Source of the DNA: Escherichia coli
GTDB taxonomy: Bacteria > Pseudomonadota > Gammaproteobacteria > Enterobacterales > Enterobacteriaceae
Length of the DNA: 64,000 nt
NCBI RefSeq assembly: GCF_050920415.1
Contig: NZ_CP169309.1
Strand: one strand, 5' to 3'
Position numbers and translations under genes: made by a program. Of this stretch, positions 38,228 through 42,978 are shown piece by piece. The notes under the pieces were generated by a model that saw nothing but the letters and a program-made list of their open reading frames with translations, did not search any database and was not told the origin of the DNA. Each line of letters opens with the position of its first letter. Within the stretch, counting starts at the first letter, position 1.

Positions 38228-39520
38228 TTACCTGTTCTCCCACAATCTCAGCATCGCTTTGTGCTCGGCTGTCAGCACAATCTGCGGGCGTCTGACGCGA
38301 ATATAGTTAATCGCTTCATCAACGGTTTTACAGTGTCCGTAACATAACAGCCATGCGGCCACCACCAGCGCACTGCGCGATAATCCCAACGCGCAATGGA
38401 CCAGAATGCTGCCTTGCTCTTTGCGTAATGTTTCCAGCATCGCCACGGCCTGTCGGAGCTCCCCCTCTTCCGGAACCACCAGATCCAACATAGGTACACA
38501 AAAATAGAGTCGATCTTTTGTCGCTCGTCCGCGAGGGAATTCAAAGGTGACGTCCAGAACCGCATTCTGTGCCGGAATATGTCGTGGAAACGTCCCTAAA
38601 TAAACACCCGCAGTAATTTCGCTCACCGGCTCCAGCCGACGACAAAACCAGTGCATCGATATCCACATACCGATGCGCCAGGGCAATGTCAGCCAGTAAA
38701 CGGCAGGCGGGAGTTTCCCCTGACTATCTTTCCCTGTTGTTATCGCGCCAAGCCCACCGTACCCACGGCCAATAATGAGTAGCGATAATACTGGCCAACA
38801 TAACCAGACTGACCACCGTAACTGATTCATCATCATTAGCGTCATCAATACTATGCACGAACACGCGCCTACGACATATGGCAGTGCTATTTTGATTCGA
38901 CGTTGATCAGGTATCTGGTAGTTCCAGCGACGGTCGACGGGCACCATCCAGTCAATCAACATACCTACCGCCAGCCCTGTGATGACATCAATAAAATGAT
39001 GCTGCCAGGTCGTCAGCGTAGAAATAGCGATGAGTAAAAACCATCCGCCACAGACTTTACGCCACCTCACAGCCAGATGCTGACGATAGTGACGCCAAAG
39101 TAGCCAGCAGAGAATAATATGCAGCGAAGGGGACTGGTTATAAGGCAGATCAAACAGTTCAAGTTGCGAAAATAGCCATCCCGTCACCCCACTCACTTCA
39201 GGGCGGATAAAACTAAACTTCAGCGGATAGAGCAAAAAACCGCAACAGGCCATTACCGTTGCCAGAATAAGCCGGTGGACCAGTCGGCGCTGTTCGAATG
39301 TCGAGCGACAAACGAACAGCGAAAATCCATATAAAAGATCCAGACTCCAGTAAGGAACAATAGTCCAGGGAAGAAAAGGGATCGCCGTTTCCCAACCGAA
39401 CACCTGACTGGGGATATCATGGTTGTTAAGATCCTGAAACGCGGTGAACTGATTAAGAAATCCATATGTGAAGAAGAAAAACGGGGCCAGCAACAATAAC
39501 CAGCCAGCTCCTTGTAGCAA
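38228..39520 (-). CDS. ynbD: Membrane-anchored dual-specificity/Tyr-type phosphatase-domain protein YnbD; start codon uncertain
   Basis: ORF 38228..39616 (-) is over-extended into ynbC; likely TTG/GTG start near 39520-39544; CX5R phosphatase motif [10 protein letters not shown] in C-terminal domain; N-terminal multi-TM domain. Confidence 0.85.
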
Positions 39521-39533
39521 TACGCTCCGGCGT

Positions 39534-41291
39534 TCAGTGGTCACGACGCACCGCCATCGAAACCGTAAAAATGCCCCACTCATCAATCCGTTGTGTGCAT
39601 TTATCAAATCCGGCATTACGCACGAGCGAATCCATCTCCCCTTGCGAACGCACGCGCATTACCCACGGTTTACCATCTTTATGACTGGTTAACACCCCGG
39701 CAATCAGCTCCAGTTGTGGGTGCCACGGCTGCCCGGTGTAGATGAGAATGCCACCCGGTTCGATGGCATTGGCAAGACCAGCGAGGGAGTTTTTTACCTG
39801 CTCGTTTTCGGGAAAAAGCTCATACAGGCCAGAGACAATCGCCAACGTAGGCCGCGGAGTTAACGCGCTGAGTTCTGCCGTATTAAACGCATCGCCCTGT
39901 TCAAAACGCGCCCGCCCAGACATTCCCTTTTGGGCAATCATCTCTTGCCCCTGTGCAACATTTAACTCACTGTAATCACGTAACAAAATATCGCTTACGG
40001 CAGGCTCGTTTGCCAGCGCATCCAGTACATAGCGCCCATGCCCTGCGGCAATGTCAACCACGCGGACGGCTAAACCTTTGGCGTGGAGATCGGCAACGGC
40101 TTGTTTAATCAGCATTTGTAAATGGGCTTTGCGCTGGCGAATACCGCGCCAGCCAACACTGTTCAGGTAGATTTTGTCGATAAAACGCCCGAATGCGTTA
40201 CTGCCTTGCGGTTGATTTTGATAAACATAATCCAGCGAACTGCCTGAATCAAAGCCGGTGCTCATTCCGAGATGCAGGCCCGCAGATTGCGCCCCGAACA
40301 GTTTCATCGCCTTTCGCATAAAGCGATACGCCAAATCAATCGGCGATAATGGCACGGGTCCACCAGAAAGGAGCCGCCATCGATCCGCAGATGGTCCTGT
40401 GCGCTCTTCATGCTGATAATCAAATTTTTGCGACTTGTTAGCATATAAACGGCTGATAAAACTTTGCATTTTTTCAAATGCCTGCGCCCTGTTCTCTTCA
40501 CCCAACGTGTCGTGATAAAAGCCCGGCAGCAGATGCAGCTCTTTCAGAGGGCTACGTAATCTCTGATAAAAATCAATCTGCGGTTGGCGACGCACCACAT
40601 AGTCATCGCCCGATATCAGAAGTTGCGTGGGGAGCGTAATCGCCGCCGCATCGCTAACAATACGTTCAGACGTTTTATAGAGATCGAGCAAGATATTGAC
40701 GGCAATCGCCCGTGTGATCAGCGGATCATTATTGAAACTCGCTACCCGTTCCCAATCGTGGGTCAAATAGCGTCCTTTCACATAGGAATTAATAAAAAAC
40801 AGACCACGCAGACGATGCCATAACGCCAGCGCAGGACGTGCCAGCGGCACATACAATTTAACCTTAAAGGCCGGAGAAGCCAGCACCAGCCCGCGAATAG
40901 CAGGCGCATAATCATGAACCCATGTGGCAACCAGCACTGCGCCGACGCTTTGCGCGATCACAACCACCTCTTCCAGCCCGACCTGGCTGTCGCTGGCAGC
41001 AAAACGGACAAATTCATCGACATCCTGCACTGAACGCGCAAGAGATGGGCTATAACCACGCGGCCCCGAAGTTTGTCCATGCCCTCGGGCATCCCAGGCA
41101 TAAAAAGCAGTATCTGGCATCGCCAGTTCATCAACGATATGTTGTAGACGACCAGAATGTTCATGACCGCGATGAAATAAGACGATGACCTTTTTCACCC
41201 CTGGCTGTAAAGCGGGCCAGTGCCGATAAAACAACGCTGTATTATCACTGGTGGTAAAAAAATGTTCCCCAGGGATGCGTGAATTTTCCAT
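39534..41291 (-). CDS. ynbC: Bifunctional alpha/beta-hydrolase plus SAM-methyltransferase-like protein YnbC
   Basis: ORF 39534..41291 (-), 585 aa; N-terminal lysophospholipase-like hydrolase (nucleophile elbow in ...[11 protein letters not shown]...), C-terminal methyltransferase-like domain. Confidence 0.9.
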
Positions 41292-41306
41292 TTTCTCTAT
41301 TTTCCT

Positions 41307-42203
41307 TCAGTAACAGCAGTAGCGAATAAAATAAAAAAATACCGGAGCGGTGAAAATTAATGAGTCAATCCTGTCAAGGAGTCCGCCATGTCCTGGTAAT
41401 AGTTTTCCACTATCTTTAACACCAATATCTCGTTTGATGGCTGACATCACTACATCGCCGCAAAAACCACTAATACCAATTAACAAACCCGCTAATAATG
41501 CCTGTAATGTATCTAGCGGTGTCAGCAACGGTCCAATAATCAGTGACGCAATCATGGTGGTGATTACGCCGCCCATCAGACCTTCCAATGTTTTTCCCGG
41601 GCTGACTTTAGGGACCACTTTTCTTCTGCCGCAGGATTTTCCCCATAAATACTGTGCAATATCGTTTGACTCGGTTAATGCCAAAAGAAATAACACCAGT
41701 AACGCCCCGCCCTGGATATTTGTGGTTGGCAACATTAATAACCAGGCGGCATGACTCAAGGCGAAAACGGTCATTATCCAGCCACAAAAAATGGCGCTCA
41801 CGGTATGCAGAAAACCAGAGGGGTCACCCACTAAAACTCGCCAGGTGGCTAATATCAGAAACCCAGCCAAAGGTATAAATAACAGAAACAGCTCAAAGCA
41901 ATTAAAACCGATAAGCAAATAGTTAAGAGGAATACCCCAATATAACCAACGCGGAAAATGTACAGATATAAGCGTACAATATTCTTTCAATGCCAGAAAA
42001 CTTATCAGCGCAAAAAACGTCAACGTCATCCAGCGTGGACCTGAAATCACCATTGAAAAACAAATGACGATGCCCCACCAGGTACGAATACGTAATGTAA
42101 CCTCACCCCCTTTTCTCTCCGGTAACCGCCATATCAGAAAACGGTTTATCAGCGTTGCTAAAATTAACAACGCGAAAAGTGTTGCCAGAGATTTTTCCAG
42201 CAT
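41307..42203 (-). CDS. ynbB: CdsA-like phosphatidate cytidylyltransferase-family membrane protein YnbB
   Basis: ORF 41307..42203 (-), 298 aa, polytopic; CTP-transferase family C-terminal region. Confidence 0.9.
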   Translation of the reverse strand: MLEKSLATLFALLILATLINRFLIWRLPERKGGEVTLRIRTWWGIVICFSMVISGPRWMTLTFFALISFLALKEYCTLISVHFPRWLYWGIPLNYLLIGFNCFELFLLFIPLAGFLILATWRVLVGDPSGFLHTVSAIFCGWIMTVFALSHAAWLLMLPTTNIQGGALLVLFLLALTESNDIAQYLWGKSCGRRKVVPKVSPGKTLEGLMGGVITTMIASLIIGPLLTPLDTLQALLAGLLIGISGFCGDVVMSAIKRDIGVKDSGKLLPGHGGLLDRIDSLIFTAPVFFYFIRYCCY

Positions 42204-42808
42204 TATCTTTCAGCACTCATAAAAAGCACACTCCGACAACGATTAATCGCAGTCCAGATAAGCAGAATTGAAGCAATACTCCATAATAAATTATTCCATT
42301 GCATCCACTGGGGATAAATGGCAATGGCCAGCCCCCACAAACCAAATATTAACGCACGATCGCTTTTGCCAAATGGACCGGCATAACTGCGAATACCGTT
42401 AATCGTCTGCGCGAGTAAACCGCAAAACTCAGTCAATATGGTGCAAAATAACATGAGTATTACGAGTGATGCGTTACTTTCCGGTAAAAATAAAAACGGT
42501 AAATAAAGCGCAATATCGGAAATAACATCGCCAGTTTCGTTCAAAATCGCCCCAAGACGTGTTTGCTGATTACACTCACGCGCCATCATGCCATCCAGCG
42601 CATTGAGTGCCATACGGACAAAAAGCACGATGGGCAATAGCAAAAAAAGGATGGGGCGTGCCACCAACATCAACAGCAATCCGGTAAGAAGAGAAAGCGC
42701 CAGTGCAGCAAGAGTGATGTGATTCGCTGTAACATGGTGCTTATAAAGCCAAAACATCGTCGGCCTTAACAGCGACTGAAAGAGCGGTTTTATCTGGTAG
42801 AGCGTCAT
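42203..42808 (-). CDS. ynbA: CDP-alcohol phosphatidyltransferase-family membrane protein YnbA
   Basis: ORF 42203..42814 (-); start taken at MTLYQIKPLF...; family assigned by recollection of YnbA, not from a motif check; 1-nt overlap with ynbB. Confidence 0.9.
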   Translation of the reverse strand: MTLYQIKPLFQSLLRPTMFWLYKHHVTANHITLAALALSLLTGLLLMLVARPILFLLLPIVLFVRMALNALDGMMARECNQQTRLGAILNETGDVISDIALYLPFLFLPESNASLVILMLFCTILTEFCGLLAQTINGIRSYAGPFGKSDRALIFGLWGLAIAIYPQWMQWNNLLWSIASILLIWTAINRCRSVLFMSAER

Positions 42809-42978
42809 TATCAATCCTTGATAATTCGGTTTGCGCTATGGTGCATCAATTCCCCTTACGGAGATATCGCAACACGCCGCTTCATTAAAAATTCAGAATA
42901 TATCAAGGTATTGGGGACTCACTGCCAGGAATGATTATCCCCAATTAATCAAATGGTTAAGAAACATTACGTTGTGGA

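Follow-up and report, generated by a model that had tools for sequence, protein, structure and literature searches.

The ynbABCD operon of Escherichia coli is a trimmed copy of a six-gene proteobacterial membrane-lipid module. We give roughly even chances to the reading that it is the remnant of a conserved module that makes and uses a specialized lipid derived from CDP-diacylglycerol (CDP-DAG). New here are the co-occurrence of these genes across genomes and the fusions between them, the trimmed state of the E. coli operon, the Asn-containing signature of YnbA, and the fold and two-faced topology of YnbD.

Organization of the ynb locus

The window, which is the whole 64,000-nucleotide stretch of E. 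coli DNA that was analyzed, carries the four minus-strand genes claimed in the initial annotation. Their ORFs are those of E. coli ynbA, ynbB, ynbC, and ynbD, and the region is 100% identical to that of E. coli MFDS1022581, where the RefSeq labels are the same four names. The ynbA gene (42203 to 42808, minus strand) starts at an ATG at 42808 that is backed by RefSeq and by orthologs, rather than at the upstream TTG that had placed its end at 42814. It is followed on the same strand by ynbB (41307 to 42203; 298 amino acids), ynbC (39534 to 41291), and ynbD (38228 to 39544), which has a GTG start and whose longest ORF reaches 39616. The junctions had been described as overlaps of 1 nt and approximately 14 to 80 nt; the 1-nt overlap was correct, the ynbA stop and ynbB start sharing one nucleotide (TAATG), but a 15-nt gap lies between ynbB and ynbC, and the ynbC-ynbD overlap is 11 nt (GTGACCACTGA), becoming 83 nt only with the longest ynbD ORF. 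Nor is azoR divergent and upstream as proposed, since it lies at 37569 to 38174 on the plus strand and converges on the 3' end of ynbD. Upstream, ynbA is flanked by ydbD, which has the same orientation. Domain searches of all four proteins confirmed the assignments made for them: CdsA-like for YnbB, CDP-alcohol transferase-like for YnbA, hydrolase plus methyltransferase for YnbC, and membrane domain plus CX5R phosphatase for YnbD.

Conservation of the module across genomes

Co-occurrence in other genomes had been named beforehand as a refutation test, and YnbA, YnbC, and YnbD proved to be together in nearly all of 80 genome loci located via YnbC, which ranged from Enterobacterales to Pseudomonas and Burkholderiales. 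YnbA adjoined YnbC in every one of these loci and YnbD did so in 77; 62 had YnbB within 10 kb, and about 62 had a PlsC-like acyltransferase. This YnbA-C-D core was also kept in Rhodocyclales, and the gene order of Enterobacterales differed from that of Pseudomonas and Burkholderiales. YnbA and YnbC were fused in two independent proteins (P0123 and P0152), one of them in a rearranged cluster that still has CdsA-like and YnbD-like genes, and a patatin phospholipase is added in distant clusters. Relatives usually carry two extra conserved genes, for the PlsC-like acyltransferase and a small membrane protein, giving a module of six. The catalytic residues of all four enzymes were kept across up to 81 orthologs, and no acceptor-supplying gene was conserved in the cluster neighborhood.

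YnbB and its relationship to MPIase synthesis

YnbB is a paralogue of the CTP:phosphatidate cytidylyltransferase CdsA (Pfam PF01148; E = 6e-69). It shares the intact C-terminal catalytic signature of CdsA, and the sequence S-x-I-K-R-x4-K-D-x-G-x5-H-G-G-x-L-D-R-x-D was kept in 63 YnbB orthologs, whereas its N-terminal half is unrelated. The protein is not uncharacterized, as there is a literature on it: YnbB forms CDP-DAG in vitro and does not support bulk phospholipid synthesis, and its overproduction restores the glycolipid MPIase (PMC6362211, PMC7018664). The formation of CDP-DAG by an enzyme that does not feed bulk phospholipid synthesis fits a dedicated supplier. YnbB is dispensable and cannot stand in for CdsA in making bulk phospholipids. 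In Morganellaceae, no ynbB is present within 10 kb of the cluster, which makes YnbB an accessory supplier outside the core.

The CdsA/MPIase pathway studied by the Nishiyama laboratory raises the alternative that the whole operon is dedicated to MPIase. YnbB would provide CDP-DAG, YnbA (or YnbB) would join it to GlcNAc-1-phosphate to give GlcNAc-PP-DAG, and YnbC and YnbD would modify or recycle pyrophosphate-linked intermediates. YnbB, whose overproduction raises or restores MPIase, has been called dedicated to it, ynbB and MPIase are cold-induced together, the enzymes of the later MPIase steps are still unassigned, lipid pyrophosphates are frequent substrates of PAP2 enzymes, and the less acidic YnbA site, with Asn for Asp, might favor an anionic phosphate nucleophile. 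However, MPIase is normal in a ynbB knockout, CdsA alone being sufficient, and the locus is not intact in about a fifth of E. coli genomes (e.g., JJ1886), although MPIase is essential. The MPIase glycan is the repeat unit of ECA, which is restricted to Enterobacterales, whereas the YnbA-C-D core extends to Pseudomonas, Burkholderiales, and Rhodocyclales and YnbB accompanies it in taxa without ECA-type glycans. Morganellaceae retain YnbA, YnbC, and YnbD with no YnbB nearby, and no link of these three proteins to MPIase was found in the literature. We regard dedication of the operon to MPIase as unlikely.

YnbA is a variant CDP-alcohol phosphatidyltransferase

YnbA is a polytopic membrane protein of 201 amino acids and a variant CDP-alcohol phosphatidyltransferase (Pfam PF01066; E = 7.6e-9). 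Its best sequence and solved-structure relatives are the class I CDP-alcohol phosphotransferases PgsA1 of mycobacteria and archaeal AIP synthase, the best solved one being mycobacterial PIP synthase 6h53, and it has in common with them the small six-helix format and the D-G-x2-A-R-x8-G segment. The full YnbA signature is N69-x2-D72-G-x2-A-R-x8-G-x3-N90-x3-D94. The presumed catalytic base, D4, is kept, but D1, a Mg-1 ligand, and D3, which bridges both Mg ions, are Asn, so that two of the four signature metal-binding Asp residues are replaced, invariantly across 80 YnbA orthologs and the two fusion proteins. Canonical chemistry is therefore not assured. The inositol-phosphate-binding Arg of PIP synthase (the R94 equivalent) is Val in YnbA. 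The best NCBIfam model was archaetidylinositol-P synthase (1.2e-20), followed by PIP synthase (1.8e-13), but neither match reached its own cut-off; all NCBIfam scores fell far short (74 versus a cut-off of 180, 51 versus 170, and 28 versus 109). Since the nearest characterized relatives of YnbA are inositol-phosphate transferases, the products of which need a phosphatase, its kinship fits a transfer followed by a dephosphorylation.

YnbD has two active sites at opposite membrane faces

The N-terminal domain of YnbD (amino acids 1 to 300; 38645 to 39544, minus strand) is an eight-helix PAP2_3-type membrane domain whose catalytic motifs face the periplasm, and the C-terminal domain (amino acids 314 to 437; 38234 to 38605, minus strand) is a cytoplasmic dual-specificity (DSP) Cys phosphatase of the CX5R type. 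Judged by the fold of the membrane domain and the deduced topology, the two active sites lie at opposite membrane faces. The membrane part is not the mere anchor that had been supposed but is itself a predicted catalytic PAP2_3 domain, at the face opposite the phosphatase. Its nearest folds are sphingomyelin and inositol-phosphorylceramide synthases, with the SMS-related protein (SMSr) as best structural match, although identity to sphingomyelin synthase, SMSr, Aur1, and LpxT is just 11 to 13%. To our knowledge, a cytoplasmic DSP fusion such as that of YnbD does not occur in these families.

The phosphatase domain has the DSP fold and CX5R loop of PTPMT1, PTEN, and Ci-VSP, which target lipid head-group phosphates, and the membrane-domain tether of Ci-VSP resembles that of YnbD. 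The basic P-loops of PTEN and PTPMT1 differ from that of YnbD (C-A-L-G-L-S-R), which has no basic residues preceding its signature Arg, and protein DUSPs share the fold and score equally well. Because most DSP domains dephosphorylate proteins, a lipid substrate for this one is something that we can only infer. Overexpressed YnbD did not complement a deficiency in PGP phosphatase or in C55-PP phosphatase (PMC7413402).

These properties bear on whether YnbA and YnbD provide a second way of making a common phospholipid, with YnbA producing PGP or PIP and the phosphatase domain of YnbD removing the phosphate from that product, in duplication of PgsA and PgpABC. The PIP, AIP, and PgsA models do match YnbA, the mitochondrial PGP phosphatase PTPMT1 has the same DSP fold, and known two-step pathways run in parallel logic. 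We consider this alternative very unlikely: all YnbA scores fell far under the cut-offs, YnbA has lost the Arg and two Asp residues described above, and a temperature-sensitive pgpA pgpB pgpC strain was not rescued by YnbD. It also leaves the strictly co-inherited lipase-methyltransferase and periplasmic PAP2_3 domain unexplained, and inositol-phosphate synthase is not among the genes conserved near the cluster. We know of no inositol-phosphate synthase in E. coli.

A closer parallel is the inositol-lipid cluster BT_1522-BT_1526 of Bacteroides thetaiotaomicron, with a PIP synthase that uses a phosphorylated alcohol (BT_1523), a dedicated lipid-phosphate phosphatase (BT_1525), and an Aur1-like PAP2-type transferase that hands the head group to a second lipid (BT_1522) (Heaver et al. 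2022, PMC9246714). PIP/AIP synthases are the closest relatives of YnbA, and SMSr and Aur1 those of the YnbD membrane domain. Unlike that cluster, the ynb module lacks an inositol-phosphate synthase, its YnbA has the two Asp-to-Asn replacements and the missing Arg described above, and dephosphorylation would fall to a Cys DSP joined to a transferase-like domain rather than to a PgpA-type enzyme. The ynb module further includes a CdsA paralogue of its own, the lipase-methyltransferase, the acyltransferase, and the small membrane protein. Furthermore, ynb hosts are not known as sphingolipid producers.

YnbC is a lipase-methyltransferase fusion

The N-terminal domain of YnbC (amino acids 32 to 266; 40494 to 41198, minus strand) is an alpha/beta hydrolase of the monoacylglycerol-lipase/lysophospholipase type (Pfam Hydrolase_4; E = 5e-67). 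Its AF2 model (pLDDT 95) matched M. tuberculosis Rv0183 and human MGL with TM scores of 0.85 to 0.90, a fold also shared with PldB and YtpA. The HRGHEHSGR motif, Ser115, Asp230, and His260 are invariant, and the Ser-Asp-His triad and HG(G)xEHS oxyanion motif are common to monoacylglycerol lipases and bacterial lysophospholipases; some YnbC orthologs are annotated as YtpA or monoacylglycerol lipase. YnbC differs from these enzymes in that its hydrolase is always fused to Methyltransf_20 and sits in a CDP-DAG cluster. The C-terminal domain (amino acids 275 to 582; 39546 to 40469, minus strand) is a class I SAM-dependent methyltransferase of this uncharacterized family (Pfam PF12147; E = 1.3e-151), which no paper found in our literature search names. 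The SAM motif D-I-A-A-G-x-G-R-Y and acidic D439 are invariant, and a PDB profile search matched the Rossmann core only, the top match being 9sls (9e-8), with CFA synthase 7qos at 6e-5.

A lipase beside a PAP2_3 domain could instead point to a nonbiosynthetic device for lipid turnover or signaling, in which lipase, PAP2_3 domain (as a phospholipase C), and phosphatase degrade or remodel phospholipids and the DSP targets a protein. Characterized members of the monoacylglycerol-lipase fold are catabolic, most DSP domains are protein phosphatases, SMSr is a lipid phosphotransferase of the YnbD fold, and distant clusters add the patatin phospholipase. The most tightly linked parts, however, are the activating, biosynthetic CdsA paralogue and CDP-alcohol-transferase homologue, YnbA is even fused to YnbC, and an acyltransferase is usually present, and we find such a device improbable.

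Proposed pathway

In the biosynthetic reading that we prefer, YnbB makes CDP-DAG at the cytoplasmic face, an activity known from the literature, and would hand it to YnbA rather than to the bulk pool. YnbA would then move the phosphatidyl group onto an alcohol, probably a phosphorylated one, and the cytoplasmic Cys phosphatase of YnbD would strip that phosphate, as in the conversion of PIP to PI or PGP to PG. The lipase domain of YnbC may deacylate the lipid and its SAM domain methylate it, with re-acylation by the PlsC-like acyltransferase in relatives. Finally, the lipid would flip to the outer leaflet of the inner membrane, where the periplasm-facing domain of YnbD would transfer or cleave its phospho-head group. 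What would be made is a phosphorylated head-group lipid derived from CDP-DAG that then undergoes dephosphorylation and remodeling or methylation before it is used on the periplasmic side; no product lipid of the ynb module has been reported in the literature. The order initially proposed (CDP-lipid synthesis, transfer, dephosphorylation, and methylation or deacylation) is in keeping with the domains, the co-occurrence, and the kinship of YnbA, but the missing Asp residues of YnbA and the accessory standing of YnbB count against it. The E. coli version is a trimmed, dispensable form under a BglJ-RcsB-activated promoter.

State of the operon in E. coli

The operon had also been described as self-contained, which is not the case in E. 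coli, where the PlsC-like acyltransferase and small membrane protein of its relatives are absent. All four ORFs were intact in at least 4,275 of 5,426 genomes, and about a fifth of E. coli genomes had no intact locus, among which IS-insertion and internal-deletion variants occur; in JJ1886, azoR directly adjoins pdxI. Across the four ynb genes, dN/dS was 0.14 to 0.26, compared to 0.013 for azoR, and the genes are under purifying but relaxed selection, these values being well below neutrality. With two conserved partners missing and constraint relaxed, the E. coli operon may be only partly functional.

The ynbA promoter lies in the ydbD-ynbA intergenic region (42809 to 42978, minus strand) and is activated by BglJ-RcsB from a mapped site 65 to 68 bp upstream of the transcription start (PMC3950696). 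A consensus scan of this region gave no strong sigma-70 site. The ynbA-ynbB-ydbD stretch has a G+C content of 41 to 45%, and the low-G+C promoter stretch is probably silenced by H-NS.

Much of this would also be expected if the operon were silenced and decaying in E. coli, a remnant that no longer has a function there, with the full module working in other bacteria. The missing partners, which most other genomes have, the low G+C of the promoter region and ynbA-ynbB, the need for BglJ-RcsB, the disrupted loci, dN/dS values roughly 10 to 20 times that of azoR, and the normal growth of single knockouts are all in line with such decay. We nevertheless doubt it, giving it about the same low probability as dedication to MPIase. 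Most genomes keep four intact ORFs with all catalytic residues under selection, and the acyltransferase is likewise absent from Phytobacter. According to a paper that cites Kamemoto 2023, ynbB is cold-induced and contributes with cdsA to growth in the cold. In addition, a ynbC transposon mutant has a stress phenotype, with polyphosphate accumulation.

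Organization of the ynbABCD locus

Four open reading frames were found on the minus strand at 38228-42814, as the initial annotation had held. These are ynbA (42203-42808), ynbB (41307-42203), ynbC (39534-41291), and ynbD (38228-39544, with a GTG start), which RefSeq annotates as a CDP-alcohol phosphatidyltransferase family protein, a phosphatidate cytidylyltransferase, a bifunctional alpha/beta hydrolase/class I SAM methyltransferase, and a PAP2/dual-specificity phosphatase, respectively. It shares 100% identity with the corresponding region of E. coli MFDS1022581 and about 96% with that of K-12. 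The stop codon of ynbA and the start codon of ynbB have one base in common (TAATG), ynbB and ynbC are separated by 15 nt, and ynbD begins 11 nt before ynbC ends. Judged by the single strand, the minimal spacing, and a linkage that is kept across taxa, ynbABCD is a conserved gene cluster and a predicted operon, and published work has placed ynbC upstream of ynbD within a single operon. The placement of azoR as a divergent upstream gene had to be corrected: azoR (37569-38174, plus strand) is a convergent gene that runs toward the 3' end of ynbD, and the gene directly upstream of ynbA is ydbD (42979-45291, minus strand), annotated as a 'DUF2773 domain-containing bactofilin'. Past ydbD (45350-48000 in the window and 11350-13001 in the related locus L001), pdxI is found, together with a very large gene whose product has an autotransporter domain.

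The G+C content of the ynbA-ynbB-ydbD stretch was 41 to 45%, with the ydbD region the lowest in the neighborhood. Scans for consensus promoters and terminators gave site counts that were not above, or were below, those of shuffled sequence and were uninformative. A published map places a promoter 5' of ynbA, reported to require BglJ-RcsB, a regulator known to counter H-NS silencing (PMC3950696).

The domain assignments that had been made for the four proteins were upheld by profile searches. Residues 27 to 175 of YnbA, read as a CDP-alcohol phosphatidyltransferase, matched Pfam PF01066 (E 7.6e-9). YnbB, called CdsA-like, matched PF01148 (CdsA/CTP:phosphatidate cytidylyltransferase; E 6e-69), and the C-terminal CdsA catalytic signature S-x-[IV]-K-R-x4-K-D-x-G-x5-H-G-G-x-x-D-R-x-D was present in it and conserved in 63 orthologs. 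YnbC, described as an alpha/beta hydrolase fused to a SAM-methyltransferase-like domain, matched Hydrolase_4 (PF12146; E 5e-67) and then Methyltransf_20 (PF12147; E 1e-151). YnbD, taken to be a polytopic membrane domain with a Cys-based (CX5R) phosphatase, gave a weak match to PAP2_3 (2e-4, versus 0.019 for PAP2) and a clear DSPc domain, and its model (pLDDT 93.6) consists of eight membrane helices followed by the dual-specificity phosphatase (DSP) domain.

A conserved gene module in other genomes

The expectation that the genes co-occur in other genomes also held. One genome per species was scanned with an alignment of 12 YnbC sequences, and the best 80 loci among 565 confirmed relatives were examined. 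In these best 80, YnbA adjoined YnbC in every case and YnbD did so in 77; YnbB was encoded no more than 10 kb away in 62. The gene order was ynbA-ynbB-(acyltransferase)-ynbC-ynbD-(small ORF) in Enterobacterales and ynbA-ynbC-ynbD-(small ORF)-(acyltransferase)-ynbB in Pseudomonas, Burkholderiales, and Rhodocyclales. In Xenorhabdus, Proteus, Providencia, and Morganella the order was ynbA-ynbC-ynbD-(small ORF), with ynbB and the acyltransferase gene not nearby. Linkage that is kept through such rearrangement is strong evidence that the products share a function. YnbA and YnbC were fused in two metagenomic proteins, P0123 (807 amino acids) and P0152 (927 amino acids). The P0152 cluster is rearranged and includes genes for a patatin, an SDR, a CdsA-like protein, and a 592-amino-acid YnbD homologue that retains the PAP2 motifs and the loop C-A-M-G-L-S-R. 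From the linkage counts, layouts, and fusions, the conserved core is therefore YnbA, YnbC, and YnbD, with YnbB as a frequent and dedicated supplier of CDP-DAG.

Two further genes accompany the core. A PlsC-like acyltransferase was found in most relatives and is orthologous across the two main layouts (37% identity). A small membrane protein of 133 to 151 amino acids is encoded directly 3' of ynbD in 67 of these 80 loci (for example, at 13031-13432 in locus L002 and 13145-13600 in locus L065). No BLAST similarity was detected between its Enterobacterales and Pseudomonas forms, which proved homologous at the profile level only (hhalign probability 99.1%, E 9e-19). Pfam contained no family matching either of them, and no NCBIfam model matched the Pseudomonas form, the sole one scanned against that collection. 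Beyond these two, the 80 loci contained no further conserved neighbor family, including no linked inositol-phosphate synthase.

The variant transferase motif of YnbA

The PDB relatives of YnbA were without exception CDP-alcohol phosphotransferases, the best solved being the mycobacterial phosphatidylinositol-phosphate (PIP) synthase. The family signature, D1-x2-D2-G-x2-A-R-x8-G-x3-D3-x3-D4, provides four Asp for two metal ions. YnbA departs from it: aligned to PIP synthase, its sequence reads N69-x2-D72-G-x2-A-R-x8-G-x3-N90-x3-D94, so that D2 and D4 are retained and D1 and D3 are replaced by Asn. Because both Asn were invariant in 80 of 80 orthologs and in the two distant fusion proteins, the substitution looks like a selected variant rather than decay. 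In the Mycobacterium tuberculosis PIP synthase PgsA1, the four Asp hold a two-metal center in which D1, D2, and D3 bind Mg-1 and D3 and D4 bind Mg-2, with D4 the presumed base (PMC6506517). A reading of YnbA as an enzyme that has lost its catalytic base was dropped, since D4 is kept and the substitutions affect two metal ligands (PMC6506517). With its Asn/Asn form, YnbA offers a point at which the two-metal mechanism can be tested.

The best curated (NCBIfam) matches of YnbA, to archaetidylinositol-phosphate synthase (74.2 bits versus a cutoff of 180) and to PIP synthase (50.6 versus 170), fell far short of the equivalog cutoffs. Arg94 of PgsA1, which directly follows D4, is required to bind inositol phosphate (PMC6506517); its equivalent in YnbA is Val95 (C-D-R-I-S-D in PIP synthase versus G-D-V-I-S-D in YnbA). 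Many basic residues of YnbA were invariant (K7, R15, R65, R140, K148, R151, and R190), which would fit anionic substrates.

YnbB and its relation to MPIase

YnbB is reported to synthesize CDP-DAG in vitro without replacing CdsA for bulk phospholipids, and its overproduction to raise or restore the glycolipid MPIase (PMC6362211, PMC7018664). The glycan of MPIase is the ECA repeat unit. An operon dedicated to MPIase is nevertheless an unlikely reading. A ynbB knockout is reported to have no defect in phospholipids and normal MPIase (PMC6362211, PMC7018664). In the genome comparison, roughly one in five E. coli genomes had no intact ynbABCD locus, and the YnbA-YnbC-YnbD core is found outside Enterobacterales and in bacteria without ECA-type glycans. 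The requirement for MPIase and the co-distribution with it that would mark an MPIase system were thus not found for ynbABCD. For the question of which enzymes follow CDP-DAG on the way to MPIase, the main bearing of these results is that they argue against an operon devoted as a whole to that product. YnbB is also described as cold induced. In one E. coli record, a single protein of 889 amino acids (P0001) joins PF01148 of YnbB to the YnbC domains, probably through loss of the ynbB stop codon across the intergenic gap or through a sequencing error.

The two domains of YnbC

The hydrolase domain of YnbC resembled monoacylglycerol lipases with a TM score of about 0.9 in a confident AF2 model (pLDDT 95), and its Ser-Asp-His triad and oxyanion motif (HG) were invariant, as were the SAM motifs of the second domain. 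By triad, HG motif, and fold, the N-terminal part is an alpha/beta hydrolase of the monoacylglycerol lipase/lysophospholipase type. The methyltransferase domain has the Rossmann fold of class I SAM-dependent enzymes, with an invariant Gly-rich motif I (D-I-A-A-G-x-G) and an invariant acidic residue after strand 2 (D439). Compared against the PDB, the Methyltransf_20 profile matched methyltransferases over the Rossmann core only and gave no hint of a substrate, and a search for literature on the PF12147/Methyltransf_20 family returned none. A ynbC transposon mutant has been reported to accumulate polyphosphate, possibly by polarity on ynbD.

Distant hydrolase-Methyltransf_20 fusions with 33 to 35% identity to YnbC were present on four metagenome contigs (L082, L083, L084, and L092), where they follow a gene set for ACP, ketosynthase, MaoC dehydratase, ketoreductase, and PF10118. 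Neither YnbA nor YnbD was found near them, and they were set aside as paralogues that do not belong to the ynb system. With a methyltransferase and an esterase paired next to genes for fatty-acid elongation, the arrangement is reminiscent of the BioC/BioH methyl-ester logic in pimelate synthesis.

Predicted active sites of YnbD on both membrane faces

Residues invariant in YnbD included P-S-L-H142, H182-H183-x2-D186, D354, and C384-x5-R390. Compared to the PAP2 motifs C1 (K-x6-R-P), C2 (P-S-G-H), and C3 (S-R-x5-H-x3-D), C1 of YnbD is shortened and variable ([KRH]-x4-[RQ]-P), C2 is P-S-L-H142, and C3 keeps its His and Asp (H182 and D186) with Val176 in place of Arg. The DSP domain has the H-C-x5-R-S P-loop, general-acid Asp, and fold of the PF00782 family. 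Loop charges (19 K+R versus 3) predict a cytoplasmic location for both the N terminus and the DSP domain and a periplasmic one for each of the three PAP2 motifs, and the single polypeptide is therefore predicted to carry two catalytic sites on opposite faces of the inner membrane. In the model, the membrane domain has the fold of sphingomyelin synthase and Aur1-type enzymes, with a putative catalytic His-His-Asp on the noncytoplasmic face.

YnbD has been recognized as a fourth PAP2 protein of E. coli, and overexpressed ynbD did not complement for PGP phosphatase or undecaprenyl-pyrophosphate phosphatase, activities known from PgpB and YbjG (PMC7413402). A back-up route to PG or PI is very improbable: besides this negative PGP-phosphatase complementation (PMC7413402), the YnbA scores are below threshold, its inositol-phosphate-binding Arg is missing, and such a route leaves YnbC and the periplasmic domain of YnbD unexplained.

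Residues 216 to 433 of YnbD (about 38246-38899), comprising the last two helices and the DSP domain, matched positions 1 to 230 of NCBIfam PRK12361 (E 3.7e-28), a model of 546 residues labeled 'hypothetical protein'. The membrane-tethered phosphatase module therefore also occurs in a second, longer architecture, one that presumably bears a lipid-kinase-like domain.

A proposed pathway

The idea of an alternative head-group lipid pathway, put forward in the initial annotation, was reasonable and needed both correction and extension. We propose that YnbB would supply CDP-DAG to YnbA, which would make a phosphatidyl-X-phosphate; that the DSP domain of YnbD would remove the phosphate; that YnbC would deacylate and methylate the lipid, with the PlsC-like enzyme, where present, re-acylating it; and that the lipid would then flip, allowing the PAP2_3 domain of YnbD to transfer or cleave the phospho-head group at the outer leaflet. 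We give the overall scheme, from CDP-DAG to a modified head-group lipid used at the periplasmic face, an even chance, and hold its single steps with much less confidence. It draws on enzymes that are intact, co-inherited, and in some lineages fused, on the CDP-DAG made by YnbB, on YnbA relatives that use phosphorylated alcohols, and on YnbD as a predicted cytoplasmic Cys phosphatase joined to a periplasmic head-group-transferase-like domain. A catabolic or signaling device fits poorly with the tightly linked activating enzymes, and we consider it highly unlikely.

The closest worked-out analogue of the proposed biosynthetic pathway is the inositol-lipid cluster of Bacteroides, in which a PIP synthase, a PIP phosphatase, and an Aur1-like transferase are encoded together and to which an inositol-phosphate synthase gene is linked (PMC9246714). 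Tentatively, and with odds clearly below even, the module may make an undescribed, probably methylated glycerophospholipid that serves as head-group donor for a sphingomyelin-synthase-like transferase at the periplasmic face. In that case, Proteobacteria, E. coli K-12 among them, would own a eukaryote-style system in which the donor lipid is made inside and the head group moved outside, and the Asn-substituted metal site of YnbA would mark a new subclass of CDP-alcohol phosphotransferases.

Literature searches by operon name and by enzyme combination turned up no work on what YnbA or YnbC does or on the operon as a pathway. The ynb genes are already annotated, and one has been studied, so no new genes are discovered here. 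The analysis adds the conservation of a six-gene module, the fusions of YnbA to YnbC, the Asn/Asn variant of the transferase, and the two-faced character of YnbD. No bacterium has been studied better than E. coli K-12, whose phospholipids are held to be mapped essentially completely. For that reason, a conserved, intact, CDP-DAG-dependent module without an assigned product is a real gap in the E. coli lipid map.

The trimmed and variable copy in E. coli

Neither the PlsC-like acyltransferase nor the small membrane protein was found anywhere in the 64-kb window, and by this comparison of gene content E. coli ynbABCD is a trimmed copy of the six-gene module. The whole locus was present in at least 4275 of 5426 complete E. 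coli genomes, the others having no locus or variants with IS insertions or deletions. Between the window strain and BW25113, dN/dS was 0.14 to 0.26 for the four ynb genes and 0.013 for azoR; the ynb genes are under constraint, if a loose one. The lost partners and relaxed selection would suit a decaying remnant, and the intact catalytic residues and dN/dS values well under 1 speak against it; decay is considered improbable.

In E. coli JJ1886, azoR directly adjoins pdxI and ynbABCD and ydbD are all missing; these five genes behave as a single variable segment. At the position of the large autotransporter-domain gene, JJ1886 is annotated with a large hypothetical protein. Disrupted loci were seen in two E. 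coli records, NZ_JALDNN010000001.1 and NZ_AP027588.1 (locus matches H32 and H33): one has IS903B in place of ynbB, and in the other an internal deletion has spared ynbA and ynbD but truncated the methyltransferase gene between them.
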